NCBI GenBank assembly: GCA_964553245.1
Contig: CAZKJM010000001.1
Span: 81,806-145,805, forward strand
Direction of reading: 5' to 3'
Length of the DNA stretch: 64,000 nt
Source: an uncultured Gammaproteobacteria bacterium
Lineage (GTDB): Bacteria; Patescibacteriota; Microgenomatia; Levybacterales; UBA12049
This document shows positions 19,314-49,950 of the stretch, piece by piece. The stretch's first letter is position 1. Every line of letters starts with the position of its first letter. The notes beneath the pieces were generated by a model. The model saw only the letters and a list, made by a program, of their open reading frames with translations, was not told the DNA's origin and searched no databases. A program made the translations under genes and the position numbers.

Positions 19314-19317
19314 AATC

Positions 19318-24154: not shown

Positions 24155-24474
24155 TTTTTATAAAATCTATCTTTAAATAAAAGATAAAAATATTTAGCTA
24201 ATGACAAAACGAGAAACCCATAAACAAAAGACATATAATGATTTGCTTCGACGGGAGAATTTAAAAGAAAGCTTACTATGCTTATACAAAAAAATATTAA
24301 AGCACAAATTTCAAAACTGAATCTTAATAAAACTAATATTATACAAAAAGTATAAATTACAAAATAATTTATATCGAATATCTGTCTTAATATAAAATAA
24401 TACAAAATAAAAAAAGGCCATTGCAAAAATCTATTGCTTTTTTTATCAAAATATTTTAACCACAACTTTTTCAT
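24151..24474 (-). CDS. small 3-4 TM membrane protein, possible GtrA-like flippase component
   Basis: 107 aa. It sits between two GT-C-like genes and downstream of the GtrB-like gene. The basic C-terminal tail ...AKYFYLLFKDRFYKK resembles GtrA-family C-termini only loosely. Confidence 0.3.
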   Translation of the reverse strand: MKKLWLKYFDKKSNRFLQWPFFILYYFILRQIFDINYFVIYTFCIILVLLRFSFEICALIFFCISIVSFLLNSPVEANHYMSFVYGFLVLSLAKYFYLLFKDRFYKK

Positions 24475-27400
24475 TTTTTATTAAGTCTTATATACAAAAT
24501 TAATGTTAAAATGAATACTGCTACTAAGATAAAAGCATTTCTTATCGTCTTTTTATACCCGATATATTCAATAATTATCGTGTCCGTTGGAGAATCTATG
24601 TACCATGCATTCGAGTATGAACTAGAAAAATGGTAATAATTTTTTTTATTATCATCTATTGGATAAGCAATCCAATCTTTATTATACGTTTGATTAAAAG
24701 CTAAAAATCCAGAAAAATTTTTTGACATTTTTAATTCATATTTCATTGGACTGTTTTTTCTTACATCTAAAATTCTTCCTGTTGTTTGTTTTTTGGAAGT
24801 TTCTAGCAAACAGTAAAGCCTTACATCGTCATTGCCTACTTCAGGAGAAATTATAAAATCATTATAAATACTAGGATTATTAGAATTCGTATCTAAATTA
24901 ATCACATAAAAATAATACACTGGGTGATCAAAATTATTCACATTAAATTCCTTCGAAAAAGCTTGTTGCTTATTGCTCTTTTTGAGTATCGTTCCAAAAA
25001 CAATAGAATTTTTATCGTGTACTCCATCTCTTATTTCATTTAAATCTAATTTTCCCTTGGACAATAACAAAACATATGTTCCTTCAGATTCTTCATTAAG
25101 AGTAAAACCAATATGATAGCTTCCATTTTTTAGCAAACCAGCTTTTATCTCATTTATACCTCCTACATTTTCCTGCAGACTATCTAACTCTAAGATATTT
25201 TTTACATTATATTTAATCTCTGCTTGAAAGCTTCCTTTTGAAAGAGTAATGTAACCCGGAAGAGATAACTCGTTATTGTTAATAGTAACTTTATTAATAT
25301 TTAAATTACTATTTCTTGCCTCAGCGAAACACCTATAATCTCCTGTATGTGATATATCAAGCCTCATTCTGTAAACTTTTTCAATATAATCTGTCTCCCA
25401 AATATTGTTTTTAATATCATTAATTGACTTTTCTATGTATGATAAAAGATAAAGTATTTGCGTATTCAGCTCATTATCTCTTAGGGGATTGATTTTTGTA
25501 GGATTAAAATTTCCACCGGTAACAAAGTTTATCAATTTTTCCTGCTGTGGGATTAGAAAATTAATTACTTCAATACTTTTGTTGTTTTTTGTAAAAAAAT
25601 CTGAATTTAACGAATTTAAATTATTTATCGTGTCTCTAAAAGATAAAATATATTTTGACGCCTGGTCCTTAACTTCGCCTGTTGTACCATTATCTATTTT
25701 TTTAAATAAATTCAAAAATTCATTCTGGGTATGAATTAACGAATAACTAATTTTATCTTCATCGGTTAATATTACTGGATTTGTCTTTCCGATAATTGTT
25801 TTTATTACCGTTTTAATTTTCTTTATGAAGCTATCGTCATCTACTTGAGGTAATTTTGCATTAATCTTAATGCAGCCTACGCAATTGGCAACAGAAGAAT
25901 AATCACTAATTTTTTCACTAAATTGCTTTAGTAAAGTATTTTCACTTACAATGATGTATCCCTCAACTGCGCCTATTTGTCTTGATAAAATCTCAAATTC
26001 CTCCCCTGAATTTAGTTGTAAATTAGTATATACCAGCCTTGAAGGCGTTGAAAAACCATAGTTAAAATCTTTAATTGTATTTAACTTAAATAACTTAAAA
26101 TATGTATTTTCATAAATCTTATTAAATTCTTCATCTTTTTCAAGCCCAAAAGCTATTTTTTCCGGATCAATATCATTTAAGTTTAAATAATTTGTGTAGT
26201 AAAAAGGCACATTATCTTTTTTTACTAAAACTAAACCTATTTGGTTTTGGACTAGAAAATTTTTAAAATCTTGCAAGTTATCTTTTTGAAGCATCAAATA
26301 TGGAGACATATTAAAAGAATCAGGTTTGTTTTGAATAAATTGTGTATTTAAAAAACTGCAATTTATCAACCTGTTTAAAATTTCCTGTCCAACATAGGAG
26401 TAACCCGTTTTTTCCCATACTGCGTTTGAGATAATTGATGTTTTCGGAATAACAAGAGTTGTCGTACGTTGACATTCCTTTTCTAAATTGAGTTTTAAAT
26501 CATAATATTCAACTGGAATTTGAGTTTTTGAACTAAAAACATAGTCTTTATTACCGTAAGTGAAATTAACTTTTTTAACATTGTCGTAAGAAAAAATAAA
26601 AAATGGTCCCGTTATTATCGCGGTAACACACAGCACAAGAAAAAATGTAGCAAATATTGTCTTTTTCATTTTGTAGCGAATAAGATAATCCAGTAGTAGC
26701 ATTAAACCAACACCTGTTAAAACAAAGTAACTGAAAAAGTAAAAAAGTCCTGCTTTTTGATACGCATCTCTAAACGCTCCAAAAAATGGAATATAATCAA
26801 ATGCAAATCTTAATATCCAAGACAATGGAGGATTCCCGGCTTTCATAATAAATATGAACATCAGAAGTAAAAATAAAAAATATATTAAAATATTTTTATT
26901 CTTTATATTTTTTAGCCTAAGCATCAAAAAAACAATCAAAAAGGGAAGAAGGAAAATCGGTAAAGTGAAAACAGAACCGCTGACATAAAATTCATTCCAG
27001 CTAAATGCATTATTTATCATCATCGGACTACCCAAGATCCTTAAAATATTTAACAAGGTGCTCCCTTGGGCATTAACGTCAAGATATATAGAGGTTCCCA
27101 AGCTAGCCTGGGATTCATACTGCTTAGCCAAAATTGAGATTATTGGAGAAAACCACCACGAGTTAATTAAAACGACTAATAAAAAGAATAAACAAATATT
27201 TAATGTTTTCCTACTGATTAATTTTGTATTAGAAGTAAAAAAATAAAAGAATAGGTATATAAAGATGATTATTAAATATTGAGCAAGATAGATATATGAA
27301 ATAAATCCTGGGATTAAAAATAATTCACTCAAAAAAAATGCGAATAACCAAAATGACCTTTTATGCTGATTATTTTTGTCTAATGGAAAAAGCTTAATAA

Positions 27401-27893
27401 GACATAAAAAATTAAATGGAAGCATGCTGTAAATATAAATTTGGGGATTAAACATAAAATAAGCATAATAAAAAGTGTAAAGATTTAAAGAATAAATAAT
27501 TGAAAATGAAATGATGCCGAGTGAAATATATTTATTCTTATTAATTTTTAGATAACTGGCAAGATAGCTCAAGAATAAATAATAGCTAATAATAGATAAC
27601 ATTATGAAAGAAATATATAGAAGAAATTGCGCAGTTGACAAGCTTGAAAATAACTCCGCAAATAAGGATGTTGGCAAAACATAAGGAATCCAAGCCCAGC
27701 CAAAACCAAAATCACCAGGAAAAATATTGCTATCCCATGTATCAAGAAAATGTAAAGAATGCGTTAAATCAAAAGAAAGAAGACTATCCCAATAATAAAT
27801 GATTGTACCTCCCTCAAACCATTTATGTACTGCCATTACCGCAATAAAAAAACTAAATATAATTAAAACAACTGCCTTCAGGATTTTGCTCAT
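24471..27893 (-). CDS. 1140-aa giant membrane glycosyltransferase-like protein (N-terminal GT-C-like polytopic domain, about 680-aa extracytoplasmic domain, C-terminal TM anchor; AftD-like architecture)
   Basis: About 12 N-terminal TM helices with an acidic first loop (YYWDSLLSFDLTHSLHFLDTWDSNIFPGDFGFGW). A long hydrophilic region rich in N/Y/T follows, and the final segment is a TM helix, ...AFILVAVFILTLILYIRLNKK. Confidence 0.5.
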   Translation of the reverse strand: MSKILKAVVLIIFSFFIAVMAVHKWFEGGTIIYYWDSLLSFDLTHSLHFLDTWDSNIFPGDFGFGWAWIPYVLPTSLFAELFSSLSTAQFLLYISFIMLSIISYYLFLSYLASYLKINKNKYISLGIISFSIIYSLNLYTFYYAYFMFNPQIYIYSMLPFNFLCLIKLFPLDKNNQHKRSFWLFAFFLSELFLIPGFISYIYLAQYLIIIFIYLFFYFFTSNTKLISRKTLNICLFFLLVVLINSWWFSPIISILAKQYESQASLGTSIYLDVNAQGSTLLNILRILGSPMMINNAFSWNEFYVSGSVFTLPIFLLPFLIVFLMLRLKNIKNKNILIYFLFLLLMFIFIMKAGNPPLSWILRFAFDYIPFFGAFRDAYQKAGLFYFFSYFVLTGVGLMLLLDYLIRYKMKKTIFATFFLVLCVTAIITGPFFIFSYDNVKKVNFTYGNKDYVFSSKTQIPVEYYDLKLNLEKECQRTTTLVIPKTSIISNAVWEKTGYSYVGQEILNRLINCSFLNTQFIQNKPDSFNMSPYLMLQKDNLQDFKNFLVQNQIGLVLVKKDNVPFYYTNYLNLNDIDPEKIAFGLEKDEEFNKIYENTYFKLFKLNTIKDFNYGFSTPSRLVYTNLQLNSGEEFEILSRQIGAVEGYIIVSENTLLKQFSEKISDYSSVANCVGCIKINAKLPQVDDDSFIKKIKTVIKTIIGKTNPVILTDEDKISYSLIHTQNEFLNLFKKIDNGTTGEVKDQASKYILSFRDTINNLNSLNSDFFTKNNKSIEVINFLIPQQEKLINFVTGGNFNPTKINPLRDNELNTQILYLLSYIEKSINDIKNNIWETDYIEKVYRMRLDISHTGDYRCFAEARNSNLNINKVTINNNELSLPGYITLSKGSFQAEIKYNVKNILELDSLQENVGGINEIKAGLLKNGSYHIGFTLNEESEGTYVLLLSKGKLDLNEIRDGVHDKNSIVFGTILKKSNKQQAFSKEFNVNNFDHPVYYFYVINLDTNSNNPSIYNDFIISPEVGNDDVRLYCLLETSKKQTTGRILDVRKNSPMKYELKMSKNFSGFLAFNQTYNKDWIAYPIDDNKKNYYHFSSSYSNAWYIDSPTDTIIIEYIGYKKTIRNAFILVAVFILTLILYIRLNKK

Positions 27894-28897
27894 ATTATGT
27901 TTTTACCAATTGAACCCTCGCGAACTATTTTATTTAACGAATATCTTTTCATAAACTTTAACATTAACTTTGGGATTAACAATGAAGAAACTAACCAAAA
28001 CCAGAAAGAAAAACTATATAAAAATTTTTTTCTTAATTGTATTACCCTTCTTGCTCCTTTTATTAGGTTAAAATTGGTATTAGAATACTTATTTGCCGGA
28101 AAATGTCTAATTAATTCTCTTATTATTTTGTCAATGAACTCATTTGCTTCTTCTTTATTAAGTGACTTTTGTAAAAATAATAAATACTTTTCAAATGAAA
28201 ATTTACCTTCTTTTATGTAAAAAAAGGGGTGATTAGGGTTTTTATCTTTATCTATCCACCGAGCAAAAAATAAATATTTGGAAATAAAAAATCCTCCGCT
28301 CTCTTTTATATTACCTATTAACATGTCTATCCATGGGATAAGCTCTGAATTAATTAATCTATTTTTTTTATTCTGCTTCAATATGATTCCCGTAAGAAAA
28401 AATGGATCCACTTTTTCAAGGAATTTGATAATTTCATAATTGCCCAAATTAGGATTCAGACTCTTATTTGTTAAAAATTTATTATCCTTATTAAAATTAA
28501 AAATTTTTCCTGTTTTATCATTAACGCTTAAGTAATTTGCTCTAATAAATCCATAATTATTCTTTGTTAAATGTTTATAAATATGCTTTAAAGCATTACT
28601 ATTCTTCATATAGTCGTCGTCTCCATGAAAAATAATGTATCTTCCCTTAGATAATGAAATTGCTTTCTGAAGGTTACCTATCCAAGTAATTTTTTTTGCA
28701 TTTTTTATATACTTTATTCTTGAATCCTTAAAGCTTAATACGATTTCTCTTGTTGAATCACTAGAGTTGTTATCAGAGATTACAATCTCAAAATTTTTAA
28801 AAGTTTGTTTAAGTATGGCAACTATTGCTTTATTAAGATATTGTTCTCTATTGTAAGTGGGTATCAAAATTGAAAAAAAGGGGTTATTTACTTTCAT
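27890..28897 (-). CDS. glycosyltransferase family 2 (GT-A)
   Basis: FFSILIPTYNREQYLNKAIVAIL...ISDNNSSDST. 335 aa. Confidence 0.75.
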   Translation of the reverse strand: MKVNNPFFSILIPTYNREQYLNKAIVAILKQTFKNFEIVISDNNSSDSTREIVLSFKDSRIKYIKNAKKITWIGNLQKAISLSKGRYIIFHGDDDYMKNSNALKHIYKHLTKNNYGFIRANYLSVNDKTGKIFNFNKDNKFLTNKSLNPNLGNYEIIKFLEKVDPFFLTGIILKQNKKNRLINSELIPWIDMLIGNIKESGGFFISKYLFFARWIDKDKNPNHPFFYIKEGKFSFEKYLLFLQKSLNKEEANEFIDKIIRELIRHFPANKYSNTNFNLIKGARRVIQLRKKFLYSFSFWFWLVSSLLIPKLMLKFMKRYSLNKIVREGSIGKNII

Positions 28898-29856
28898 TTA
28901 TATAACATTTGTTCCATTGTTTGATAATATTTGAGAAACTTCTTAACTTTTATTTCGTCTGGTAATACAATATAGAATTTTTTACATTCAATTAGTAATT
29001 CTTTTTCTTCATCTGTAAAAAGTTTCTCTGTAATTTTCTCTCCGTTCCTTTTTCCAACAATTTTTATTTTTATTTTTTTACTATTTGAGTTCTTTATAAT
29101 AGTTTTTTTTGCTAATTGATAAATATTTTCCTCGTCCATCTTTAACACAAATATCTCTTGACCTTTCATTAACGTAGCCGCAAGAAAAACTAAATTAACT
29201 GCATCGGGAATTGACATAAAAAACCTTTTCATTCTTTTATCGGTAACTGTTACTGGTCCTCCTTCATTAATTTGATTAATCCATACTGGTATAACAGATC
29301 CTCTTGAGTTCATAACATTCCCAAATCTAACAACTGAAAACTTAGTAAGAGCAGACCCAGAGTAATATTTGGAACAGATTACCATTTTTTCCATAAGAAG
29401 TTTTGTAATACCCATAACATTATTAGGATATACTGCTTTATCGGTAGATATGGCAATTAACCTATCAACATTATTTTTAATTGCCAAGTCAATTATATTT
29501 TGTGTCCCATAAACATTGGTCTTTATTGCTTCAAAAGAATTATTTTCACAATATGGAACGTGTTTTAATGCAGCTGCATGAAAAACAATATTAACCCCTT
29601 GAAAGGCTTTTTCAAGTCTATCTTTGTCTCTTATATCTCCAATAAAATATTTAATATCTACTGGACTAGAAAGTTTTTTCAGTTCTTGTTCAAGAAAAAA
29701 ATGCTTAGACTCATCCCTGGAGTATACTCTAACTTGCTTTGGCCTGTATGGCAAAATTTGTCTTACGATTTCACTTCCAATTGATCCAGTTCCACCAGTT
29801 ACCAAAATTATTTTTTTATTAAAAGTTCGAAATAATTTTTTATTTAATTTTGTCAT
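28894..29856 (-). CDS. nucleotide-sugar (UDP/GDP-GlcNAc) 4,6-dehydratase of the PseB/FlaA1/CapD/LegB family
   Basis: KKIILVTGGTGSIGSEIVRQIL...VRVYSRDESK...FIGDIRDKDRL...FHAAALKHVP...ISTDKAVYP is collinear with Campylobacter/Helicobacter PseB. 320 aa. Confidence 0.8.
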   Translation of the reverse strand: MTKLNKKLFRTFNKKIILVTGGTGSIGSEIVRQILPYRPKQVRVYSRDESKHFFLEQELKKLSSPVDIKYFIGDIRDKDRLEKAFQGVNIVFHAAALKHVPYCENNSFEAIKTNVYGTQNIIDLAIKNNVDRLIAISTDKAVYPNNVMGITKLLMEKMVICSKYYSGSALTKFSVVRFGNVMNSRGSVIPVWINQINEGGPVTVTDKRMKRFFMSIPDAVNLVFLAATLMKGQEIFVLKMDEENIYQLAKKTIIKNSNSKKIKIKIVGKRNGEKITEKLFTDEEKELLIECKKFYIVLPDEIKVKKFLKYYQTMEQMLYK

Positions 29857-30685
29857 TAAAGCTTTTTCTTATAAAACCAGGCAGATTATTTTTAAATTCT
29901 ATTTTAATTTCTTTGGATAGTTTATCGTTTGATATATTTTCTATATTCTCGTAAGGCTCACGTTTAGCGTATTTTACCTTAAATTTACTTTTTGTTAAAG
30001 TGGAAACAAGTTTTATAAACTCTCTTACTGTATATTCCTCTTCTCCACTTAAATTATAAGTACCATAAATGTCTTGCAACATGGACTCAACAATTAAATT
30101 TGCACAATCGTCAACGTGCATAAAAAACCTTTTTAATGAACCGTTATTATTAAAATATAATTTTCTATCTGATATAAAAGATTTATAAACATATCCACTT
30201 ATTCCTTTTGAACCAATTCCATATAGATTAGATATTCTATATATAGTTTTTTTTCGGTCAGGAATAAATTCATTAATCAAAAACTCCGAATATGCCTTGC
30301 ATGTTGAATAAGGAGTCTCTGGGTTTAAAGGATTTTCTTCCAAAGCGTAATCCGTAGTTCCATAAACTGCAACGGTTGATAATTGAATTAGCTTCTTGTC
30401 ATATTTATTACAAATTTTGATTAGATTTAAAATTGCTTTTGAATTAAGCAAAAAACATTGATTTATTGGAAAGCTTATTTGTCCAGTACAGTTAACAACT
30501 GTATCGAAAGCCCTAGACTCCTCTTCAAGCTGATTATAGTTAAGAATATCAATTCTCTTATTTCTAGAATTTTTATTATGCATAGATGCAAATCCTGTAT
30601 TTCTAATCCCTCTTTCGGATAGTTTTTTTACTATGCTTTTACCAAGGAATCCACTACCACCTAATACCATTACCGACTTATTCAT
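29840..30685 (-). CDS. NAD(P)-dependent epimerase/dehydratase (short-chain dehydrogenase/reductase superfamily, extended class)
   Basis: VMVLGGSGFLGKSIVKKL Rossmann motif. 281 aa. Confidence 0.6.
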   Translation of the reverse strand: MNKSVMVLGGSGFLGKSIVKKLSERGIRNTGFASMHNKNSRNKRIDILNYNQLEEESRAFDTVVNCTGQISFPINQCFLLNSKAILNLIKICNKYDKKLIQLSTVAVYGTTDYALEENPLNPETPYSTCKAYSEFLINEFIPDRKKTIYRISNLYGIGSKGISGYVYKSFISDRKLYFNNNGSLKRFFMHVDDCANLIVESMLQDIYGTYNLSGEEEYTVREFIKLVSTLTKSKFKVKYAKREPYENIENISNDKLSKEIKIEFKNNLPGFIRKSFNDKIK

Positions 30686-31832
30686 AAAATTTTTTTTGAA
30701 TGATGTTACTGAGAGGAATTGTCTTTAATACTTTAACAATTTTTTCTGCAGAATTACCTATGCCATAAGGATTTCTAATTTTTTTAATTGAGTTTAGAAA
30801 TTTTTTATCATATAGAGCTTTTTTTATAGCTTCCATAATTTCTTTTTTGCTATATCCTACATCTATAACGTTGCTAGACCTTTCTCTGCCTTGTTGTCGG
30901 GTACCAATGTTAACCACTGGAGTTTTAAAGGTAGCTGCCTCATGAATACCAGAGCTTGAATTCCCTATTAAAACAGATACATATCTTAATAAATTGGAAT
31001 ATTTTGTAGAAGATAGTGTTGGATAGTATTTTACATTAAGTTTTTTCAATTGCTTGATAATTCCAGAATATCCAGCATCGTTATTAGGAAATAATATTAT
31101 ACTTTGTATTTTTAAAGTTTTTAAAGCTTCAATCGTTTCAATAATCTGAGAATCTGATTTGTTATTTTCAGTTGTAACAGGATGCTGAATCATTAATGCT
31201 ACTGGTTTTGAAAAATCCACATTGAATTCTTTTTCCAGCTCCTTCTTCGAAATCTTCTTCGAATTTAAAAGGGTATCTATTGATGAACAACCTACTGTAA
31301 AGATAAATTTTGGGTCTTCTCCAATTCTTATTAGTCTTTTTTTAGATAGCATCGTTGCTGGAAAATGTATATGAGCAAATTTACTCATTGCATGTCTTAT
31401 GCTCTCATCGATGCTTCCTGTAAGTTCTCCTCCCTGAATATGAGCAACGGGAATATTCATATGCGCAGCTGCTATAGTTACTGCAAAATTTGCTCCAATA
31501 TCAAATCCCGATAAAACTATATCTGGCTTAACCTTTTCTAGCTCATCGACAATCTTCAACATAAATCTACTCATACCCCTTACCATCTCTGCACCAGAAT
31601 CTTCCCCATTGTCTTTAAACATTTTTATTTCGGAAGAAATTTTAAAACCATCATTTTTTATGTTTTGAATATCATGCCCATGACTTTTTAATAAACAAAT
31701 TCCTGTAACCACAATATATAGTTCAAAAAAAGGATCTTCTTTTATCTTTTCTAAAACAGGCTTGAATCTACTATAATCAGCCCTTCTTTCTATGACTACA
31801 AAAATTTTTCTCATTTCCCTATATCCCTCCAT
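30678..31832 (-). CDS. neuC: UDP-N-acetylglucosamine 2-epimerase (hydrolysing), NeuC/LegG family
   Basis: ADYSRFKPVL...LYIVVTG...GFDIGANFAVTIAAAHMNIPVAHIQGGE...DESIRHAMSKFAHIHFPAT is collinear with NeuC. Confidence 0.8.
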   Translation of the reverse strand: MEGYREMRKIFVVIERRADYSRFKPVLEKIKEDPFFELYIVVTGICLLKSHGHDIQNIKNDGFKISSEIKMFKDNGEDSGAEMVRGMSRFMLKIVDELEKVKPDIVLSGFDIGANFAVTIAAAHMNIPVAHIQGGELTGSIDESIRHAMSKFAHIHFPATMLSKKRLIRIGEDPKFIFTVGCSSIDTLLNSKKISKKELEKEFNVDFSKPVALMIQHPVTTENNKSDSQIIETIEALKTLKIQSIILFPNNDAGYSGIIKQLKKLNVKYYPTLSSTKYSNLLRYVSVLIGNSSSGIHEAATFKTPVVNIGTRQQGRERSSNVIDVGYSKKEIMEAIKKALYDKKFLNSIKKIRNPYGIGNSAEKIVKVLKTIPLSNIIQKKFYE

Positions 31833-32887
31833 TTTAACTGAGTGTTAATAGGCAAGCTTCTAATTATTTTTTTACCTAAAATTTTTCTATAGTCCTTTGC
31901 TTTAATCTCACCTGTTCCAGGTCTCTTTACCCAAATATTTTCTTCTGTGAGTAGATCGCCTTTTTTTATTTCTTTTGTCGTCACGACGCAAGCGTAAGCA
32001 AAATTAATAGTAGGTTGTTCTTCTTTTAAAATATTTTTTGAACCACCAAGTGCCTTATGAATAAAATCCGTACCTTTAATTAATTCACTAAGCTCAGTAG
32101 GATCGATTGAGATAGGAATATCTGGCCCAGGCCACTTCTTGCTCGATGTAAAATGTTTTTCAATTATTGATGCGCCACAACTTATAGCAGCAAAACTAGT
32201 ATAATTTCCTATTGAATGATCGCTTAATCCTACTACGGTATTAGGAAATGTTTTTGACAGATCAACTAGTGCCCCCAATCTTACTTTTTCGTAAGGCGTT
32301 GGATAAATTGAAGTACAATGTAATATTGCAAATTCAGTTTTATAGCTTCTAAGTATCTTAACTGCCTTTTTTATAGAAGGGATATCATTCATTCCCGTAC
32401 TTAGAATAATTGGTTTTTTAAATCTAGCAATATGCTCAATCAATGGATAATTATTGCACTCTCCGGACCCAATTTTGTAAGCATCAACATTCATTCTTTT
32501 CAATCTTTCTGCTGCTGCGCGCGAGAATGGAGTAGATAGATAAATCATACCCTTAGATTCAACATATCTTTTTATCTTAAAATCCTCTTCCTCTGATAAT
32601 TTGCATCTTTCCATAATTTTCCAGATGGTTTCCTTGGTATTTCCAGGCACGACCTTATTTGGAATCATCTCATCCTCTATTACATGTGCCTGAAACTTAA
32701 CGCACTCACAACCTGCATTATGGGCATCATCTATCATCCTAATTGCTTTCTTAATATTTCCTTCGTGATTAATCCCCACTTCTGCAATAATAAATGGCTT
32801 AAAAGAAGGACCAATCTTTCTATCCTTTATTTTTATATACTGCTTTGAATTCATATTAAATCTAAAAAACCCTAAACTGCATAGCAA
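31811..32887 (-). CDS. neuB: nonulosonic acid (N-acetylneuraminate/legionaminate/pseudaminate-type) synthase, NeuB family with C-terminal SAF domain
   Basis: FIIAEVGINHEGNIKKAIRMIDDAHNAGCECVKFQ is the NeuB TIM-barrel N-terminal signature. 358 aa. A C-terminal antifreeze-like (SAF) domain region is present. Confidence 0.85.
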   Translation of the reverse strand: MLCSLGFFRFNMNSKQYIKIKDRKIGPSFKPFIIAEVGINHEGNIKKAIRMIDDAHNAGCECVKFQAHVIEDEMIPNKVVPGNTKETIWKIMERCKLSEEEDFKIKRYVESKGMIYLSTPFSRAAAERLKRMNVDAYKIGSGECNNYPLIEHIARFKKPIILSTGMNDIPSIKKAVKILRSYKTEFAILHCTSIYPTPYEKVRLGALVDLSKTFPNTVVGLSDHSIGNYTSFAAISCGASIIEKHFTSSKKWPGPDIPISIDPTELSELIKGTDFIHKALGGSKNILKEEQPTINFAYACVVTTKEIKKGDLLTEENIWVKRPGTGEIKAKDYRKILGKKIIRSLPINTQLKWRDIGK

Positions 32888-34017
32888 ATTGTATCAGCAA
32901 TTTCCTCAGTCAAGTGTCTAAGATAGAATTTATAATTTTTGTTAATTTTGTAAATCTTTAAAATTATTTTCCAAATGTGATCTGGATGATGATATACAGA
33001 AATTGCTAATTTAGGCTTATGTTTTCTAATTATATCTTTCGCTCCATCAAGCGCCCTATATTCAGAACCTTCTATGTCCATTTTAATTAATGTTGGTTTT
33101 TCTTTACGGTTATGGAAAAAATCATCAATCGTAGTAACATGTATATAATCTTTACCTGCTTTATTCTTTTTAACTACTTCTTTTAAGGAGATACTCGAAT
33201 CAAAACTGTTGTTACAGATAAATTTAACCCATGAATTGGAATTATATACTCCTTCTTTTAATAGGTGTATGTTTTTTAAATTATTTCTTTTTATCAAATC
33301 TCTAATTTTACGAAGATTTTTAGGATCAGGCTCAAATGCATAAATACTATTATAGTTTTTTTTTGCACTTAAGAATGCCTTTATTGTATCTCCATCATAT
33401 GCTCCGCAATCAACATACACTTCATCTTCTTTTAAATGTAAGATATCACTTTCTAAAAATATTGGAAATTTTGATTTAGATTTATCTATGTATTTATAAT
33501 CTCCAGTAATCCTGAATTTTTGTAGATTAGACAGAACCTTTTTTGACTCATCATCGCTTAAAAGCGTCTTCACCTTAAGTATATTAAAGTTATAATTATT
33601 ATTAAAAATTTTTTTATGCATTTTATCAATCTGAGGCAAAGGAAATATTTTTGGAGAAAAAATATTTAATATATAAGGAATAAAAATCGACTTAAACCCA
33701 TTCTTTTTTAGTTGTTTATATATCTGATTTGTATATAAAAGACTACCAATAATTATTAATTGATTTTTTATAACTTTCGCTTCTTTTAAAGAAATAATTT
33801 TTGTATTTTTATATTTTTTTCCTTGAACCTTCAAATCATTGTCAATAAATGCTTCTGTCCTAATACCTTTTTTTTCTAAATTATCGTGATATAACCTACC
33901 AAGACCTCCTGCTCCAAAAATTAAAACTTTTTTTTTACTATCGAAGATTTGCTTATATTGCGAGTATTTATTTTTTTTAAAAAATATTTTTTTTTCAAAG
34001 ATAAACTTATTTAACAT
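32872..34017 (-). CDS. fusion protein: N-terminal NeuD/PglD-like Rossmann-type domain plus C-terminal FkbM-family methyltransferase
   Basis: N-terminal VLIFGAGGLGRLYHDNL resembles the NeuD N-domain IIGAGGHGKV motif. The C-terminal VYVDCGAYDGDTIKAF...IKMDIEGSEYRALDGA...LAISVYH matches FkbM methyltransferase. Confidence 0.65.
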   Translation of the reverse strand: MLNKFIFEKKIFFKKNKYSQYKQIFDSKKKVLIFGAGGLGRLYHDNLEKKGIRTEAFIDNDLKVQGKKYKNTKIISLKEAKVIKNQLIIIGSLLYTNQIYKQLKKNGFKSIFIPYILNIFSPKIFPLPQIDKMHKKIFNNNYNFNILKVKTLLSDDESKKVLSNLQKFRITGDYKYIDKSKSKFPIFLESDILHLKEDEVYVDCGAYDGDTIKAFLSAKKNYNSIYAFEPDPKNLRKIRDLIKRNNLKNIHLLKEGVYNSNSWVKFICNNSFDSSISLKEVVKKNKAGKDYIHVTTIDDFFHNRKEKPTLIKMDIEGSEYRALDGAKDIIRKHKPKLAISVYHHPDHIWKIILKIYKINKNYKFYLRHLTEEIADTICYAV

Positions 34018-34831: not shown

Positions 34832-35821
34832 TTAGTTTATTTCAATCATTTTTTCAAGCCTAACTGACTTATGAATGGCAAGTAATATTTTTAAATTTCT
34901 TATTCCATCCTCTAGTGATATTTCTGCTTCTTTTTTATTCTTAACGCTGTCTATAAAACTTTTTATTTCTGAAGCAAACATATCATTTCTTTCAAATTTT
35001 TTAAATTTAAAGGTCTCAATATTAATATTTCCTTTACGGTTGAACCTATAAACCGTTATTTTTTTTAAAAAATAATCAAATTCAATTCTTCCATTTTCTC
35101 CAATAAAATACCATTGCCTTTTTGGTGGATTTTGCAAAAAATCAAGATGAATATTTGCAATTACGCCATCTTTATATCTGAATAATATCTCTGCCACATC
35201 TTCTGTATTAATTACCATATTAGACAAATGACCAGAGAATGCAAAAACACTTTCTGGACATCCAAGAAAATATGTCAATAAGTCAACTTCGTGACAAAGT
35301 GTAAATATTACCCCTCCACCTAATTCTCTTCTAGCGGAATATCCTTTCGCGTAATCCTCTTTTGGATGCCATAATGGAAGAAATTCACCACATGTAAGAT
35401 TGCAATACAATATCTTTCCAATATAATTCTTATTTAAAAGCTCTTTAATTTTTATTACTGCTGGATGATATCTCATCATAAAACCAACAAATACCAATCT
35501 TTTGCTTGCTCTTATTGTTTCCAATAATTTTTTTGCCTGATTTAAATTAGTACCCAATGGCTTCTCGATAAATATATTGCTTTTATTTTTAGCTGCTAGC
35601 AATGCAAACTTTAAATGCAGTGATGATGGATTTGTAATAAAAACAATATCTGGTTTTTCGGAAAATGCTTTTTTTAAACTATAAAATTGCTTTACGCCTA
35701 AATTATCTTTCTGATAATTTTTTTTAGATCTAAAAGCTATTATATTTTTTTCGCCACATTCTATTAAATTTTTTAAATGTCGCTGGCCAATAGAACCAAG
35801 TCCGCAAAAAAGATACTTCAC
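34832..35821 (-). CDS. Gfo/Idh/MocA-family NAD(P)-dependent oxidoreductase
   Basis: MKYLFCGLGSIGQRHLKNL N-terminal Rossmann fold. 329 aa. A EKP motif region is present (IFIEKPLG). Confidence 0.7.
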   Translation of the reverse strand: MKYLFCGLGSIGQRHLKNLIECGEKNIIAFRSKKNYQKDNLGVKQFYSLKKAFSEKPDIVFITNPSSLHLKFALLAAKNKSNIFIEKPLGTNLNQAKKLLETIRASKRLVFVGFMMRYHPAVIKIKELLNKNYIGKILYCNLTCGEFLPLWHPKEDYAKGYSARRELGGGVIFTLCHEVDLLTYFLGCPESVFAFSGHLSNMVINTEDVAEILFRYKDGVIANIHLDFLQNPPKRQWYFIGENGRIEFDYFLKKITVYRFNRKGNINIETFKFKKFERNDMFASEIKSFIDSVKNKKEAEISLEDGIRNLKILLAIHKSVRLEKMIEIN

Positions 35822-36711
35822 TTTTCGACCTTCCTAATCCTGCTAATAGCAAAATAATCATCTTTTATAAGAAACTGTTTACTTATTATTGATTTATTAT
35901 TTTTTAAATGTTGGTATAATTTTAAGATTCCCTCTTCATATGAATAAAACTTCAATAGCGGCATTTCATTTCTTAATCTAGAATTATCTCCCGTGTATTG
36001 ATAGTTCAATCCTTTATTGACGACTGTTATTTCTGAATTCTTTCTTGAAATTTTATTTATTATTTTTACTATCTCTACCAAGCTTATGGATGTATCAGGT
36101 GTAACATTATAATCAGAGTACGTCACATTTGCCTTAAGAAAGAAATCTAAAACCTTTATCAAATCATCTATAAATAAATAGTCGAAAACCACATCTTGCT
36201 TTATAGATATCGGTAGATTAAAAATATTCTTCGCAACTGAATTTGATATAAATTTTTTTAAATAGTCTTCTCCCGGTCCATATATCCCAAAAAGCCTTAA
36301 GTTGGTAATATTTTTTACCTTACTCCCTTTTTCTTGTATTAAAAACTTCGCAAACCCATATGAATCCTGTGGCACATATTTTCCCCAATCTGTTTCTTTT
36401 ACTTTAACTAAGTTCCTGTTTTTCGCATATTCTGCTCCTGAACCAAAGTGAATTATCTTCTTAACAACATCTGAATTTCTAAAGATACTTTCAAACATTC
36501 TTAAATTATCTTCAAAACCCTCTGACCCATTAACTATTGCAGAATGTATAATCGCATCTATCTTTTTTAATTTTAAATATTTTCTTAACAATAGTTCATC
36601 TTTAATATCCAATTCATTATGAGAGGGTGAAAAAAGAATGTGTTTTTTCTTCAACTTCGATATAATATTCTTGCCTATAAAACCTCTTCCTCCTGTTATT
36701 AAAATTTTCAT
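35818..36711 (-). CDS. NAD-dependent epimerase/dehydratase or reductase
   Basis: MKILITGGRGFIGKNII. 297 aa. Confidence 0.6.
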   Translation of the reverse strand: MKILITGGRGFIGKNIISKLKKKHILFSPSHNELDIKDELLLRKYLKLKKIDAIIHSAIVNGSEGFEDNLRMFESIFRNSDVVKKIIHFGSGAEYAKNRNLVKVKETDWGKYVPQDSYGFAKFLIQEKGSKVKNITNLRLFGIYGPGEDYLKKFISNSVAKNIFNLPISIKQDVVFDYLFIDDLIKVLDFFLKANVTYSDYNVTPDTSISLVEIVKIINKISRKNSEITVVNKGLNYQYTGDNSRLRNEMPLLKFYSYEEGILKLYQHLKNNKSIISKQFLIKDDYFAISRIRKVEK

Positions 36712-36715
36712 ATTA

Positions 36716-38497
36716 TTATTTTTTAAATAAGTTCATATTTTTATTAAACTCTTTCCTGTCTAAAAAGGGATATAGATCTTCCAATGGTCTTGATTCTAAT
36801 ATCCCGTCTTTCCTTTGATAAGTTGATGTTCTTGGAATTCTTTCCTGATTATATTCAATATTAACTTCGCATAACGCCGGTGAATTATTTTTCAAGACAT
36901 CTCTTATCTTTTTTTCTACTTCGTCATTATTTGAAATGCAATAATATTTAAGCTTATATGCGCTTGCAATATCTTTAAAATCTGGATTTATAACACCTGT
37001 ATTCTTATCTGCTCCAACTAATCTCCCTTTAAACAAATTATTTTGCGTATCTCTAATTGATTTATATCCTTCATTGTTAAAAACAAAAATTTTCAGTGGT
37101 AATTTATTAAAAGAGATCGTGCTAAGCTCTTGGATATTAAATTGAAAACTACCATCACCGGTGACTACAATTGTTTTTTTTCTGTTATTCGCTAAACAAG
37201 CCCCAATTCCAGCTGGTAAACACCAACCCATTTGTCCGAAATTTTTATTAACATAAAGTCTCTGATTTTTCTTGATCTTAAAAGACTGAATAATACTAAC
37301 TATGTCTTGACCCATTCCTGTAACTACGGTATTCTCAGACATAAGTAATTCTGAAAGTTTATACACAAAATAATAACTGTTAACATAATTTGTTTTTTTT
37401 AAATGGAGAGGATCTAAAATCCCATATCTATTTTTCCAATCACTACAAGCTCTAGCCCACTTTTTATCAAATTTAACATTTAACTTACGCGATATCTCAT
37501 ATATTTTTTTAAGAAAAAATGCTGCATCTGTATTTATCTTCAAATCAATTTCCATATCGTCTTTTTCCAGCTCTGATTTGTCTATATTAACCATAATAAT
37601 TTTTGCATTACGTCCAAAATCTTTTCTGTTAAATCCTGTCGATGCCACATTTAAACTCGCACCGATTGAAATAATTAAATCTGAATTCTGAAGCACAAAA
37701 TTTGCTCTTCGCTGTCCTTTTGGACCATATCTTCCCATATATGACGGGAGATCCTCAGAAAACATATCCAAACCGTTTTCATCCGTAACAACAGGAACTT
37801 TAAAATTATTAATAAATTTATGAAGTATTTGAATCCCGCCTGCTAATCTAATTCCGTTTCCCGCAATAATTAATGGTCTACTAGATTCTTTTAATAACTT
37901 AGTTAGTTTACCAAATTGTTTTTTATCAAAAATATTTTTTTTTCTAGGAGGAATAAATTGTGTAAAACTGCTCTTTTCTATTTCAGCATTCTGTACATCA
38001 AGTGGAATACTGATCCAAACTGGCCCTGGTCTGCCTGATGTAGCCTCATAAAAGGCCTTTTGCAAGTTAAACTGGACATCAGAAGGATTTAAAAGTTGAA
38101 CTGCATATTTTGTAATCGGTTTTACCATGTCTATTATATTTATTTCTTGCGGTCCTTTTTGCCTTGATTTTGTGTAATCTGCAATTATTTCTTTTTTTAC
38201 CTGTCCTGAAATTACAATCATTGGAATAGAGTCAACCCAAGCAGCGGCCACACCTGTTATCGCATTAGTTCCACCTGGGCCAGATGTAACAACACATGCC
38301 GACACGCCATTTTTCATCCTAGCATAACTTTCTGCGCAAGTAGCTGAAGCTTGCTCATGGAAATTAGCACAATATCTAATGTTCTTATTCCTATAGATGG
38401 CATCAAGAAGATACATTATTCCCCCACCAGATACCAAGAAGATGTCTTTTATCCCTTTCTTTTCTAGAAAACTTATTACAAATTCTGAAACGGTCAT
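36716..38497 (-). CDS. thiamine-pyrophosphate-dependent enzyme, acetolactate-synthase-large-subunit-like (YerE-like candidate)
   Basis: 593 aa. N-terminal TPP Pyr domain (FLVSGGGIMYLLDAIY), a central domain, and a C-terminal TPP-binding domain with GDGSFQFNIQEL (GDG-x24-30-N motif). Confidence 0.75.
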   Translation of the reverse strand: MTVSEFVISFLEKKGIKDIFLVSGGGIMYLLDAIYRNKNIRYCANFHEQASATCAESYARMKNGVSACVVTSGPGGTNAITGVAAAWVDSIPMIVISGQVKKEIIADYTKSRQKGPQEINIIDMVKPITKYAVQLLNPSDVQFNLQKAFYEATSGRPGPVWISIPLDVQNAEIEKSSFTQFIPPRKKNIFDKKQFGKLTKLLKESSRPLIIAGNGIRLAGGIQILHKFINNFKVPVVTDENGLDMFSEDLPSYMGRYGPKGQRRANFVLQNSDLIISIGASLNVASTGFNRKDFGRNAKIIMVNIDKSELEKDDMEIDLKINTDAAFFLKKIYEISRKLNVKFDKKWARACSDWKNRYGILDPLHLKKTNYVNSYYFVYKLSELLMSENTVVTGMGQDIVSIIQSFKIKKNQRLYVNKNFGQMGWCLPAGIGACLANNRKKTIVVTGDGSFQFNIQELSTISFNKLPLKIFVFNNEGYKSIRDTQNNLFKGRLVGADKNTGVINPDFKDIASAYKLKYYCISNNDEVEKKIRDVLKNNSPALCEVNIEYNQERIPRTSTYQRKDGILESRPLEDLYPFLDRKEFNKNMNLFKK

Positions 38498-39414
38498 TGT
38501 TTAATACTTTTTAAAATGGAACTCTCAATTTGATCAATTGATAATTCATTAACTTTTCTCATATACTCTTGTGAACCGATGCTTCTAGTAAAATGGTCTC
38601 TTACTCCTAGTCTTCGAAAGGGAATCTTTATTAAGTTTTCTGCAAGTACTTCAGCAACTAGACTTCCTAATCCTCCTGTTAAAAAATGTTCTTCAAGTGT
38701 AAAAATTCCTCCAGTCTTTTTTGCTGATTCCACAATAATATCAATATCTAAAGGTTTAATCGTATGCATACTAATAAGCCTTGAGGCAATATTTTTTTTA
38801 TCTAATTTCTCGCATACTTCAAGACCAGTACTTAACATACTACCAGTGGTTATCAGAGTAACATCTTTTCCTTCTCGTATAAGGCGACCTTTTCCCATCT
38901 TAAGGGAAAAATTTTTATTCCAGGTAATTTTTTTATCCAATCTTCCTAATCTAATATATACAGGTCCCTTTATCTTTATTGCTTCTTTTGTAACAAATCC
39001 AACCTCCATAGAATCTGCTGGGGAAAAAATTGTCATATTGGGGAGCGTTCTTAAAATGCCAATATCTTCGAGGGCATGATGAGTATGTCCATATGGACCA
39101 TATGTGAATCCTGCTCCCATTCCAACAATTTTTACGTTTAGATTTTGGTAGCAAATATCATTTCTTATTTGTTCAAAATTCCTCATTGTACAAAATGGAA
39201 TTATTGAATAAATGATAGGAATTTTATCTTCAATTGCCATACCCGCTGCAACTCCTGTCATATTCTGCTCTGCAATTCCTGCATTTAAATATTGTTTAGG
39301 AAATTGATTAATAAAACTTTCAAAAACTGAAAATCCTAAATCACCTGTTAATAAATGAATTTTACAATTTTTCTTTGCTAACTCTTCTAATGTTTTTATA
39401 AAAGTTGTTCTCAT
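38494..39414 (-). CDS. split transketolase, C-terminal (pyrimidine-binding plus C-terminal domain) subunit
   Basis: 306 aa resembling TktB-type subunits (LTGDLGFSVFESF...AEQNMTGVAAGMA...). It is adjacent to the N-terminal subunit gene. Confidence 0.75.
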   Translation of the reverse strand: MRTTFIKTLEELAKKNCKIHLLTGDLGFSVFESFINQFPKQYLNAGIAEQNMTGVAAGMAIEDKIPIIYSIIPFCTMRNFEQIRNDICYQNLNVKIVGMGAGFTYGPYGHTHHALEDIGILRTLPNMTIFSPADSMEVGFVTKEAIKIKGPVYIRLGRLDKKITWNKNFSLKMGKGRLIREGKDVTLITTGSMLSTGLEVCEKLDKKNIASRLISMHTIKPLDIDIIVESAKKTGGIFTLEEHFLTGGLGSLVAEVLAENLIKIPFRRLGVRDHFTRSIGSQEYMRKVNELSIDQIESSILKSIKQ

Positions 39415-48699: not shown

Positions 48700-49950
48700 T
48701 TGATAAACAGAAAACTAAAACCTATAATAAGATGTATGACAAAAATTAAGAAACCGCTCAGAATTACCTACGGACTTTCCGTATATGACAACAAGGAAAT
48801 ATTAAGGGTAACTAATGTTTTAAAAGAACACCGCTCCAACATGGGAATAGAAACAAAGCAATTTGAAAAAAGTGTGGCAAAATATTTTGGTAAAAGATAC
48901 GGAATTATGGTTAATTCAGGATCATCCGCAAACCTCTTAGCGCTAGAGCTTTTAAACTTGCCTGAAGGATCCGAGGTAATTACTCCTTTATTAACTTTTT
49001 CAACAACAGTAGCTCCAATCATTCAAAAAAAACTTACTCCTGTTTTTATAGACGTTGAAGAAGGAAAATATATTATCGATGTTAACAAAATCGAAAAAGC
49101 AATTACAAAAAAAACAAAATTGTTAATGATTCCCAATCTTTTCGGAAATATTCCAAATTTAGAAAAATTGGAAAAAATAGCTAAGAAACATAATTTATAT
49201 TATATTGAAGATTCTTGCGATACCTTAGGTGCAAGATTTAACAAAAAACCCAGCGGAAGTTATTCCGATATTTCAACTACAAGTTTTTTTGGCTCGCATA
49301 TTATAACAGCCGGTGGAAATGGCGGAATGATAATGGTAAACAAAGAAGAATGGAGGGATAAATTAAAGGTTCTAAGAGGATGGGGAAGAAGTTCTTCTTT
49401 ATTTAGTGAATCAGAAGACATTAAAGAAAGATTTAAGAAGAAGATAGACGGGATACCATACGATGCAAAATTTATTTTTGAAGAGATTGGATACAATTTT
49501 TTACCAGTAGAAATGTGTTCTGCTTTTGGCAATGAGCAAATTAAAAAACTTCCAATATTCAGAAAAACAAGAGAAAAAAATTTTAAAGTATTAAGAAAAT
49601 TTTTCGAAAAATATGAAAAGTATTTTATACTTCCAATTCAGGAAAAAAATGTTCAAACCCAATGGCTTGCTTTCCCACTTACTATAAAAGGGAATGCGCC
49701 ATTTACAAGACTTGAAATAACAACATTTTTAGAAAAAAACAATGTGCAAACAAGACCTATTTTTACAGGAAACATTCTAAAACAACCAGGATTTAAAAAC
49801 ATTAACAGAAAAGTATTGGATAAAAAATATTCTGTTGTTGATGAAATTATGGAAAGAGGATTTGTTGTTGGTTGTCATCATGGACTAGAAAGTAGACATA
49901 TAAAAACATTAACCTCATTGTTTGAAACTTTTTTAAACAAATTCAACTAA
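48700..49950 (+). CDS. PMP-dependent nucleotide-sugar 3-dehydrase of the DegT/DnrJ/EryC1 fold (E1/RfbH/DdhC- or ColD-like)
   Basis: GIMVNSGSSANLLALELL fold-type-I motif. At the position of the Schiff-base lysine the sequence reads SFFGSHIITAGGNGGMI, where His replaces Lys. This is the hallmark of E1 and ColD 3-dehydrases, not of aminotransferases. 416 aa. Confidence 0.65.
   Translation: MINRKLKPIIRCMTKIKKPLRITYGLSVYDNKEILRVTNVLKEHRSNMGIETKQFEKSVAKYFGKRYGIMVNSGSSANLLALELLNLPEGSEVITPLLTFSTTVAPIIQKKLTPVFIDVEEGKYIIDVNKIEKAITKKTKLLMIPNLFGNIPNLEKLEKIAKKHNLYYIEDSCDTLGARFNKKPSGSYSDISTTSFFGSHIITAGGNGGMIMVNKEEWRDKLKVLRGWGRSSSLFSESEDIKERFKKKIDGIPYDAKFIFEEIGYNFLPVEMCSAFGNEQIKKLPIFRKTREKNFKVLRKFFEKYEKYFILPIQEKNVQTQWLAFPLTIKGNAPFTRLEITTFLEKNNVQTRPIFTGNILKQPGFKNINRKVLDKKYSVVDEIMERGFVVGCHHGLESRHIKTLTSLFETFLNKFN

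Follow-up and report, generated by a model that had tools for sequence, protein, structure and literature searches.

Positions 28894–34017 of the DNA analysed here, a 64-kb stretch (the window) of the 561,761-bp contig CAZKJM010000001.1, hold five tightly packed minus-strand genes, separated by overlaps of 4–17 bp or gaps of <35 bp, that encode in this order a nucleotide-sugar 4,6-dehydratase, an extended short-chain dehydrogenase/reductase (SDR) that we refer to as SDR281, a hydrolysing 2-epimerase of the NeuC type, a nonulosonic acid (NulO) synthase of the NeuB type and an FkbM-family methyltransferase. We propose, with somewhat better than even confidence, that this segment is the core of an aminotransferase-independent NulO pathway within one long minus-strand glycan operon. 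The analysis established the families of the enzymes and the order of the operon, and comparison with related loci showed that the set of genes that is present and the set of genes that is missing are conserved across many of them. A preliminary description of this DNA took the region for the core of a NulO pathway, which the families of the dehydratase, NeuC and NeuB bear out. It also placed the genes for these three enzymes next to one another, which is incorrect because the gene for SDR281 separates the dehydratase from NeuC. Its further suggestion of a non-aminated, methylated NulO variant is one that the comparative genomics of SDR281 loci leads us to favour, by our estimate slightly beyond an even chance.

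In the pathway that we propose, the FnlA/PseB-like dehydratase would convert uridine diphosphate (UDP)-N-acetylglucosamine (UDP-GlcNAc) to a UDP-4-keto-6-deoxy-N-acetylhexosamine (UDP-4-keto-6-deoxy-HexNAc), and SDR281 would reduce the 4-keto group to a hydroxyl at the point where the pathways to legionaminic acid (Leg) and to pseudaminic acid (Pse) transaminate and then N-acetylate. The NeuC/LegG-type enzyme would then take off the nucleotide and epimerise C2, yielding a free 6-deoxy-2-acetamido-hexose that NeuB would combine with phosphoenolpyruvate to give 5-acetamido-3,5,9-trideoxy-non-2-ulosonic acid. The predicted NulO would keep a hydroxyl at position 7, would be deoxy at position 9 and would have the formula C11H19NO8, one oxygen fewer than N-acetylneuraminic acid (Neu5Ac). 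The FkbM methyltransferase and oxidoreductases resembling PtmA and PtmF would tailor this product, which is probably methylated. We infer the 4-ketoreductase activity of SDR281, the order of the substrates, the site of methylation and all of the stereochemistry (D- versus L-series).

SDR281 and the genes missing from the segment

We found no LegC/PseC aminotransferase, no NeuD/LegH/PseH acetyltransferase and no cytidine monophosphate (CMP)-NulO synthetase in the window or in the 10 kb on either side of it, which together make up the 84 kb of the contig that we covered (the right flank is taken in by a locus designated L108). By Pfam, neither a GNAT/PseH domain nor a CTP_transf_3 domain (PF02348, the domain of CMP-NulO synthetases) is present among the open reading frames (ORFs) of the window of at least 100 aa. 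Nor did a profile made from 77 members of the CMP-NulO synthetase family match any six-frame ORF of 50 aa or more in either the window or L108, and no such enzyme is annotated in either 10-kb flank; for the window, this agrees with the preliminary description. We presume that CMP activation is supplied from elsewhere in the genome. The accompanying claim that no aminotransferase or N-acetyltransferase is recognisable in the window fails in the literal sense, since a DegT-family gene and a hexapeptide acetyltransferase gene are present (Table 1), and holds in the functional sense, since the first is RfbH-like and the second is WcaF-like. The DegT gene, which is the only one in the window, scores 164 bits with the LegC model TIGR04181 (cut-off 420) and 159 bits with that of PseC (cut-off 423.5), compared with its higher score for RfbH, and we rejected it as the missing NulO aminotransferase; a 69% identical orthologue adjoins an RfbF-like gene in the related locus L109.

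The absence of an aminotransferase would be explained by the gene for SDR281, situated as it is between those for the dehydratase and NeuC. We propose that SDR281 is an NAD(P)H-dependent 4-ketoreductase that stands in for both the aminotransferase and the N-acetyltransferase. An alignment of homologues indicates that the family keeps GxxGxxG, Ser98 and Tyr121-x3-Lys125, and that the residues S-T-V-A-V-Y-G follow the catalytic Ser, without the Asp-Glu that 4,6-dehydratases have there. The LegB model TIGR04180 gives SDR281 only 36 bits (cut-off 475). The predicted structure (predicted local distance difference test score, pLDDT, 91.7) matches the generic extended SDR fold, including that of the reductases 2pk3 and 2ggs, and its match to Pal (6bwl) is weak (E 8e-9) and no better than that to UXS or RmlB.

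SDR281 has about 80 database relatives at 34–47% identity, for four of which we took the genomic context, and a scan with an alignment of seven SDR281 sequences identified 38 metagenome loci; removal of near-duplicates left 33 non-redundant homologues. NeuC is encoded immediately upstream of SDR281 in 31 of 32 homologues, and NeuB lies upstream at a distance of no more than three genes in 30 of 31. Fifteen loci are well flanked, having three or more genes to either side of SDR281, and within six genes of it 14 of them encode a 4,6-dehydratase and 14 a CMP-NulO synthetase (in the remaining locus the latter falls slightly beyond that distance); 13 of the 15 have a PtmE-type nucleotidyltransferase. 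No pathway aminotransferase occurs among the SDR281 loci. The single DegT gene in the well-flanked set, in L081, lies past genes for a Wzm/Wzt transporter and beside WbqC and ATP-grasp genes, and we rejected it as an exception to the aminotransferase-free pattern because it forms part of a separate module beyond Wzm/Wzt. No SDR281 homologue was found in any other context among the loci sampled, and tblastn against plasmids gave no match.

Three unrelated types of dehydratase pair with the NeuC–SDR281 unit, namely LegB, a 396-aa Polysacc_synt_2 protein and a PseB-like enzyme of the kind found in the window, a pattern that would be expected if SDR281 acts on the 4-keto product that they have in common. 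The LegB of these sister clusters is the true enzyme, that of L084 for example scoring 480 bits with TIGR04180, above the cut-off of 475. The NeuC proteins linked to SDR281 form a subclass of their own, being 59–74% identical to the window NeuC in 34 loci, while elsewhere, including in ordinary NeuB-NeuC-NeuA loci but apart from three loci described below, NeuC is at most 41% identical to it. One cluster, in a Campylobacteraceae metagenome-assembled genome (MAG; GCA_013215945.1), encodes NeuB, a dehydratase, NeuC, SDR281, PtmE, HisF, HisH, WbuX and a CMP synthetase, a set that predicts a 5-acetimidoyl-trideoxy NulO. We note that three further loci (L026, L033 and L048) encode a NeuC 54–57% identical to that of the window beside a Polysacc_synt_2 dehydratase of ~320–345 aa, with neither SDR281 nor a DegT protein; they may be a further variant that does without an aminotransferase, its reduction step falling to some other enzyme.

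The dehydratase, NeuC, NeuB and the methyltransferase

Among solved structures, the dehydratase is similarly close to Pen (6bwc, 233 bits), FnlA (4j2o, 231 bits), CapE (3vvb, 223 bits) and Helicobacter pylori PseB (2gn4, 219 bits), and is more distant from the retaining enzyme PglF (168 bits). Its active-site motif, STDKAVYPNNVMGITK, is of the MxxxK form, which FnlA and CapE also show: where the window dehydratase reads STDK...MGITK, Pen reads SSNA...YGATK, and H. pylori PseB has YGATK, which is of the YxxxK form. The preliminary description called this enzyme PseB/LegB-type, a label that we do not retain given its MxxxK in place of YxxxK and its scores below the equivalog cut-offs of PseB (TIGR03589, 305 bits, cut-off 407.75) and LegB (TIGR04180, 76 bits, cut-off 475); its score with the FnlA model is 248 bits (cut-off 730). 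An orthologue that is 71% identical occupies the same position in L109.

NeuC of the window is a hydrolysing enzyme by its models, scoring above the cut-off for TIGR03568 (Table 1) and at 106 bits with the wecB model (cut-off 210). Its closest solved relatives are LegG of Acinetobacter baumannii (5xvs, 224 bits) and human GNE (222 bits), and not SiaA of Neisseria meningitidis (56 bits). For NeuB we take Met12 as the start, the resulting 347-aa sequence being identical to a database entry (P0001), whereas the mechanically called ORF of 358 aa runs to 32887. It matches the structure of N. meningitidis NeuB (1xuu) at 408 bits (E 2e-121) and that of PseI (8h2c) at only 161 bits, by which we assign it to the NeuB/LegI group and not to PseI. 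Its score with the NeuB model TIGR03569 falls a little short of the cut-off (363.7 bits, cut-off 399.65), and that with the PseI model is 242 bits (cut-off 340). The phylogenetic placement that had been suggested for NeuB gave the same answer: in the tree, the window NeuB lies inside the large NeuB/LegI group and groups with the NeuBs of L068 and L070–72. Within this tree the NeuBs of clusters of the neuraminic acid (Neu), Leg and SDR281 types are interleaved, so that NeuB alone is no predictor of the product. A NulO in an ultra-small lineage was earlier thought to be noteworthy in itself, a point that at the genomic level loses its force in view of close NeuB homologues in MAGs of Staskawicz-, Giovannoni-, Yanofsky- and Saccharibacteria.

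The product of the fifth gene has its methyltransferase domain at residues ~200–357 (TIGR01444, 95.7 bits, cut-off 37.7), preceded by ~190 residues that make up an extra small Rossmann-like domain, annotated as PF22674 (C2185-like_N) in the precomputed annotation of the source contig. The preliminary description saw in this protein a special fusion of a NeuD-like domain to FkbM, which our analyses do not sustain. The N-terminal domain matches PglD_N only below the cut-off (E 5e-4, 20.9 bits, cut-off 23.4), the NeuD model TIGR03570 gives the protein 25.9 bits (cut-off 160.8) over its first 86 profile positions only, and by Pfam the protein lacks the hexapeptide, left-handed beta-helix acetyltransferase half of NeuD. 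The model of the N-terminal domain (pLDDT 88) has a small Rossmann-like fold, for which Foldseek returned Rex, the Vibrio fischeri protein 3nkl, VioB (7txp) and PglB (4m98), all with E-values of 3e-4 to 1e-2; the matches to the N-terminal domains of VioB and PglB (E ~7e-4 to 1e-2) are no better than those to Rex or 3nkl. Foldseek also matched this domain to the solved 375-aa FkbM methyltransferase 2py6 of Methylobacillus flagellatus over 170 aligned columns, which is most of the domain model. The combination of PF22674 with PF05050 is found in at least 1805 relatives, proteins of Paenibacillus, Arcobacter and candidate-phyla-radiation MAGs among them, and all 120 of the 120 relatives listed match near full length. 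Given these numbers and the existence of 2py6, we rejected the view that the fusion is unusual.

What sets the window gene apart from 2py6, which has the same domain pair in proteins of ~360–400 aa, is its conserved site directly upstream of NeuB. The gene is kept at this site in L070/71, L109 and L110, its orthologues being 50% identical in L109 and 40% identical in L110. This conserved position supports the role that we propose for the enzyme, namely methylation of the NulO or of its nucleotide-activated form. Mass spectrometry has revealed O-methylated CMP-NulOs in other microbes (bioRxiv 10.64898/2026.04.20.719630).

Known systems and competing explanations

The window resembles the Leg pathway of Campylobacter jejuni and Legionella (PtmE, LegB, LegC, LegH, LegG, LegI and LegF) in its NeuC/LegG-type epimerase and probable NeuB/LegI-type synthase, in the 4,6-dehydration that precedes the epimerase and in the PtmA- and PtmF-like oxidoreductases encoded alongside, and its sister SDR281 clusters use true LegB together with PtmE and a CMP synthetase. 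It differs in that LegC and LegH/NeuD are missing and a putative SDR reductase is present instead, in that the dehydratase is a Polysacc_synt_2 (FnlA/PseB-like) protein and not LegB, in that neither PtmE nor LegF is encoded in cis, and in that the predicted product carries 7-OH instead of 7-NHAc. With the Pse pathway (PseB, PseC, PseH, PseG, PseI and PseF) it shares a first enzyme of the PseB family and a predicted 9-deoxy NulO as the product. However, the active-site motif of that enzyme is MxxxK and not the YxxxK of the Pse pathway, PseC, PseH and PseF are missing, an epimerase of the hydrolysing NeuC type replaces the PseG hydrolase, and the synthase is of the NeuB type. The logic of dehydratase, 4-reductase and 2-epimerase acting on UDP-GlcNAc is also that of FnlA/FnlB/FnlC (CapE/F/G), which make UDP-L-N-acetylfucosamine (UDP-L-FucNAc), and of WbpM/WbpV, which make UDP-N-acetylquinovosamine (UDP-QuiNAc), and the window dehydratase shares the active-site motif of FnlA and CapE. 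Here, by contrast, the epimerase is of the hydrolysing type, the sugar would be released to NeuB rather than kept nucleotide-linked, and SDR281 is no homologue of FnlB or CapF.

The O-antigen of Fusobacterium nucleatum 25586 contains, as far as its structure is given in a secondary account, a 5-acetimidoyl trideoxy NulO, of the class with one nitrogen, together with 6-deoxy-L-N-acetylaltrosamine (6-deoxy-L-AltNAc) (Vinogradov 2017, cited in PMC12940168). On that account, this NulO belongs to the one-nitrogen, 7-OH, 9-deoxy class that we predict for the window, and 6-deoxy-L-AltNAc is the expected product of a dehydratase and a reductase. The stereochemistry and the N-acyl group may differ, and the window lacks the acetimidoyl genes HisH, HisF and WbuX. 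We found no link between genes and structure for the F. nucleatum sugar in the searchable literature.

Several observations weigh against the pathway that we propose. The locus L110 (GCA_040961635.1, JBFOMZ010000027.1), which matches the window operon from RfbF to NeuC, has the same operon and a NeuC 67% identical to that of the window but contains neither SDR281 nor the PseB-like gene, which means that NeuC and NeuB of the window subclass can occur without SDR281 and the dehydratase; either L110 represents a reduced variant, or its gene content indicates that the 6-deoxy precursor can come from the RfbG-like enzyme. The matches of SDR281 in the PDB and NCBIfam are to generic SDRs only, and a 4-ketoreductase and a 4-epimerase are indistinguishable by sequence. 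Resemblance is to 5-inverting enzymes for the dehydratase but to those of the D-manno series for NeuC and NeuB, which makes their stereochemical fit uncertain. Finally, there is no CMP-NulO synthetase within the 84 kb, which makes activation and transfer of the sugar less certain.

The same gene content could arise from two co-located pathways, one in which the dehydratase and SDR281 make a UDP-6-deoxy-HexNAc (of the QuiNAc, 6-deoxy-AltNAc or FucNAc type) for direct incorporation into the glycan, and one in which NeuC and NeuB make Neu5Ac from UDP-GlcNAc. Routes to UDP-QuiNAc that consist of a dehydratase and a 4-reductase are established (WbpM/WbpV and Pdeg/Preq), the window NeuB closely resembles genuine Neu5Ac synthases such as that of N. 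meningitidis and sits in the tree among NeuBs of simple NeuA-NeuB-NeuC loci, and L110 retains the same NeuC and NeuB in the absence of both SDR281 and the PseB-like dehydratase. We nevertheless consider two separate pathways unlikely, because SDR281 homologues adjoin NeuC almost without exception and were found in no other context, because the NeuC linked to SDR281 is a subclass separate from that of plain Neu5Ac-type loci and has LegG, an enzyme with a 6-deoxy substrate, and not SiaA as its best solved relative, and because the clusters of the LegB type join a dehydratase, SDR281, PtmE, NeuC, NeuB and a CMP synthetase in one compact unit. A standard Pse or Leg pathway, with its aminotransferase, N-acetyltransferase and CMP synthetase encoded outside the window and with SDR281 as an accessory (for instance a Pal-like protein that works with a Pen-like dehydratase, or an epimerase), is in our judgement quite unlikely. 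The leg genes of C. jejuni are split between loci, Pen is the best PDB match of the dehydratase and SDR281 weakly matches Pal, the DNA inspected amounts to 84 kb on a contig whose length is at least 561 kb, and the CMP synthetase must in any event be encoded elsewhere if the sugar is used. On the other hand, LegC/PseC and NeuD/PseH are missing across the whole SDR281 cluster family and not just from the window, even though most of the clusters are otherwise complete, CMP synthetase included; moreover, the active-site residues of Pen differ from those of the window dehydratase, SDR281 resembles UXS and RmlB no less than Pal, and the synthase is not of the PseI type.

A single integrated pathway that extends into the genes lying upstream by transcription would be a further possibility. 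These encode a PtmA-like SDR, a Gfo/Idh/MocA oxidoreductase, another SDR (SDR297), an acetolactate-synthase-like thiamine diphosphate (ThDP) enzyme and a split transketolase. The 2-keto acid formed by NeuB would in that case never be CMP-activated but would be taken by the ThDP enzyme, for decarboxylation or for carboligation onto a cytidine diphosphate (CDP)-4-keto-6-deoxyhexose from the RfbF- and RfbG-like enzymes, and the resulting sugar would be CDP-activated and either branched or of higher carbon number. The order RfbF-like, RfbG-like, ThDP enzyme, SDR, (Gfo, SDR, FkbM), NeuB, NeuC is found in L068, L070–72, L109 and L110, as in the window, and in a related form in L002, L005 and L012; in L068, L109 and L110 the ThDP enzyme has the RfbG/RfbF-like pair directly upstream of it, and SDR297 and the ThDP enzyme, whose orthologues in L109 are 65% and 59% identical, are always collinear with NeuB in L068, L070–72, L109 and L110. 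With our profile, neither the window nor a single one of these loci gave a match to a CMP-NulO synthetase, compared with its presence in 78 of the 111 sequences searched (the loci plus the window), and a scan of ORFs of unknown function in sister loci for an alternative nucleotidyltransferase returned only methyltransferases, a B12-radical S-adenosylmethionine (SAM) protein, a family 2 glycosyltransferase (GT2) and MutS. ThDP enzymes of the acetolactate-synthase-like family act on 2-keto acids, and CMP-activated ulosonic acids larger than C9 have recently been reported. Despite these points we regard such a pathway as very improbable, since RfbF, RfbG and RfbH, joined by a reductase and a ThDP enzyme of the YerE kind, on their own constitute a complete and known pathway of the yersiniose type, which makes a branched 3,6-dideoxyhexose using pyruvate, and since collinearity can come from transfer of a whole operon and the loci in question may be only two or three lineages. 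If it were to operate, its product would be an undescribed kind of higher-carbon branched sugar, and the lack of CMP-NulO synthetase from the loci that join ThDP enzyme and NeuB would be accounted for. The simplest reading of these loci is that the CMP synthetase is encoded in trans.

The surrounding glycan island and the SDR281-type gene set

The window has a G+C content of ~29%, which together with DUF4012 and the best homologues would suggest a candidate-phyla-radiation (Patescibacteria) origin. An island of glycan-biosynthesis genes, nearly all on the minus strand, begins at ~6 kb and runs through the right end of the window and for no less than 10 kb further. The left end of the window and the left 10-kb flank carry housekeeping genes (MraZ/MraW, the dcw cluster, RecO and a class II aminoacyl-tRNA synthetase); the right flank carries further GT-C glycosyltransferases.

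Table 1 Features of the window, with the five genes of the proposed NulO core listed before their neighbours
Feature	Length	Position	Strand	Basis
UDP-GlcNAc 4,6-dehydratase, Polysacc_synt_2, soluble, FnlA/CapE/PseB/Pen-like	320 aa	28894..29856	-	PF02719 E 2.6e-106
SDR281, extended SDR	276-281 aa	29840..30685	-	PF01370 E 1.2e-25; no NCBIfam equivalog
NeuC/LegG-type hydrolysing NDP-HexNAc 2-epimerase	378-384 aa	30678..31832	-	TIGR03568 394 bits (cut-off 235.9)
NeuB/LegI-type nonulosonic acid synthase	347 aa from Met12	31811..32854	-	PF03102 E 2.6e-74, with SAF
FkbM-family SAM methyltransferase	381 aa	32872..34017	-	PF05050 E 9.8e-20, 71.8 bits (cut-off 22.7)
GT2 glycosyltransferase, directly downstream of the dehydratase (4-bp overlap)		27890..28897	-	PF00535 E 8.4e-29
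PtmA-like classical SDR	259 aa	34022..34801	-	PRK09186 233 bits; FlagModPtmA 176 bits
Gfo/Idh/MocA oxidoreductase	329 aa	34832..35821	-	PF01408, PF22725 and PF02894
SDR297		35818-36711	-	YerF-like reading
Acetolactate synthase (ALS)-like ThDP enzyme		36716-38497	-	TPP_enzyme_N/M/C; ALS model 386 bits (cut-off 538)
RfbG-like CDP-glucose 4,6-dehydratase		45923-46879	-	TIGR02622 216 bits (cut-off 278)
RfbF-like glucose-1-phosphate cytidylyltransferase		46861-47637	-	TIGR02623 273 bits (cut-off 300)
DegT-family, RfbH-like CDP-6-deoxy-4-hexulose 3-dehydrase		48700..49950	+	RfbH NF011936 346 bits (cut-off 423)
Hexapeptide acetyltransferase, WcaF-type O-acetyltransferase, the only one in the window		17641-18195		model score

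The GT2 gene that overlaps the dehydratase gene has a homologue in L071 and, in L109, an orthologue (39% identical) whose position is conserved, and its product is a candidate transferase of the operon products. On the other side of the segment, the SDR and Gfo/Idh/MocA genes that had been reported to follow it are indeed present (Table 1). Pairs of this kind flank NeuB, NeuC and CMP-synthetase genes in many loci; the SDR is an accessory oxidoreductase that commonly travels with NulO clusters, and the Gfo/Idh/MocA protein is an accessory that is equivalent to PtmF by position. Farther upstream, the ThDP enzyme and SDR297, together with the RfbF-, RfbG- and RfbH-like genes, most likely specify a separate CDP-activated branched sugar that is yersiniose-like and belongs to the same glycan. 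In this second pathway the RfbF- and RfbG-like enzymes would take the entry steps, and the ThDP enzyme and SDR297 would probably form the branch in the manner of YerE and YerF. The RfbF, RfbG, RfbH and ThDP candidates all score below their equivalog cut-offs, and we identified no E3 reductase of the yersiniose-type pathway in the window. A cupin-type dTDP_sugar_isom protein (53132-53689), also below its equivalog cut-off, fits this set.

We made a number of other observations on the operon and its relatives. The transketolase at 38494-40223 is split into two genes, one for the N-terminal half and one for the pyrimidine/C-terminal half, inside the sugar operon, and similar split pairs occur near NeuB in L004 (Staskawiczbacteria) and L009 (Omnitrophota). 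Sister operons carry sugar C-methyltransferase-like genes (L071 10408-11589, L109 15252-16433, and L002 15207-16481 and 11011-12642), which consist of Methyltransf_23 and a C-methyltransferase C-terminal domain, and L002 has a B12-binding radical SAM enzyme encoded between NeuB and NeuC; both kinds of gene are absent from the window. These additional genes suggest heavy methyl decoration in the family of operons that join the ThDP enzyme and NeuB.

The glycan island itself (6099-62203 of the window and 11562-21518 of L108) takes up >65 kb of the 561-kb contig, a very large share of what is probably a small genome, and carries many transferases of the GT2 and GT4 families and at least nine GT-C-like membrane proteins (PMT_2/YfhO/PTPS_related); a fusion of GT2 with PMT_2 lies at 58275-60572. 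Four large ORFs of the operon have no Pfam match (13587-16769, 1060 aa; 22112-24154, 680 aa; 24471-27893, 1140 aa; and 40240-42324, 694 aa), nor has the 107-aa ORF at 24151-24474, between two of them; the homologue of the 680-aa ORF in L071 has ~10 predicted membrane spans. At 18216-19851, an ORF of 177 aa that comprises only the N-terminal half of a GT4 is directly upstream of a full-length GT4; splitting or decay of a gene is a possible explanation.

Three templates, those of the Neu, Leg and Pse pathways, currently serve to predict the sialic-acid-like sugars of bacteria from their genomes. A search of the literature on the biosynthesis of trideoxy or 9-deoxy NulOs, on a NulO 4-ketoreductase and on the SDR281 type of cluster returned no description of these, and the SDR281-type gene set, widespread in uncultured bacteria, has as far as we found no published description. 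The lack of a CMP synthetase throughout the ThDP-linked version of the gene set raises the question of how, or whether, the NulO made there is activated. If our proposal is correct, the dehydratase, the SDR281 reductase, NeuC and NeuB would amount to a fourth template that is free of an aminotransferase, and the same four enzymes would be available for the chemoenzymatic synthesis of 9-deoxy analogues of sialic acid. The gene set would also provide a genetic basis for mono-amino 9-deoxy NulOs, among them the trideoxy fusaminic acid found in F. nucleatum, and would make such sugars predictable in Campylobacterota, Bacteroidota, candidate-phyla-radiation bacteria and other lineages.

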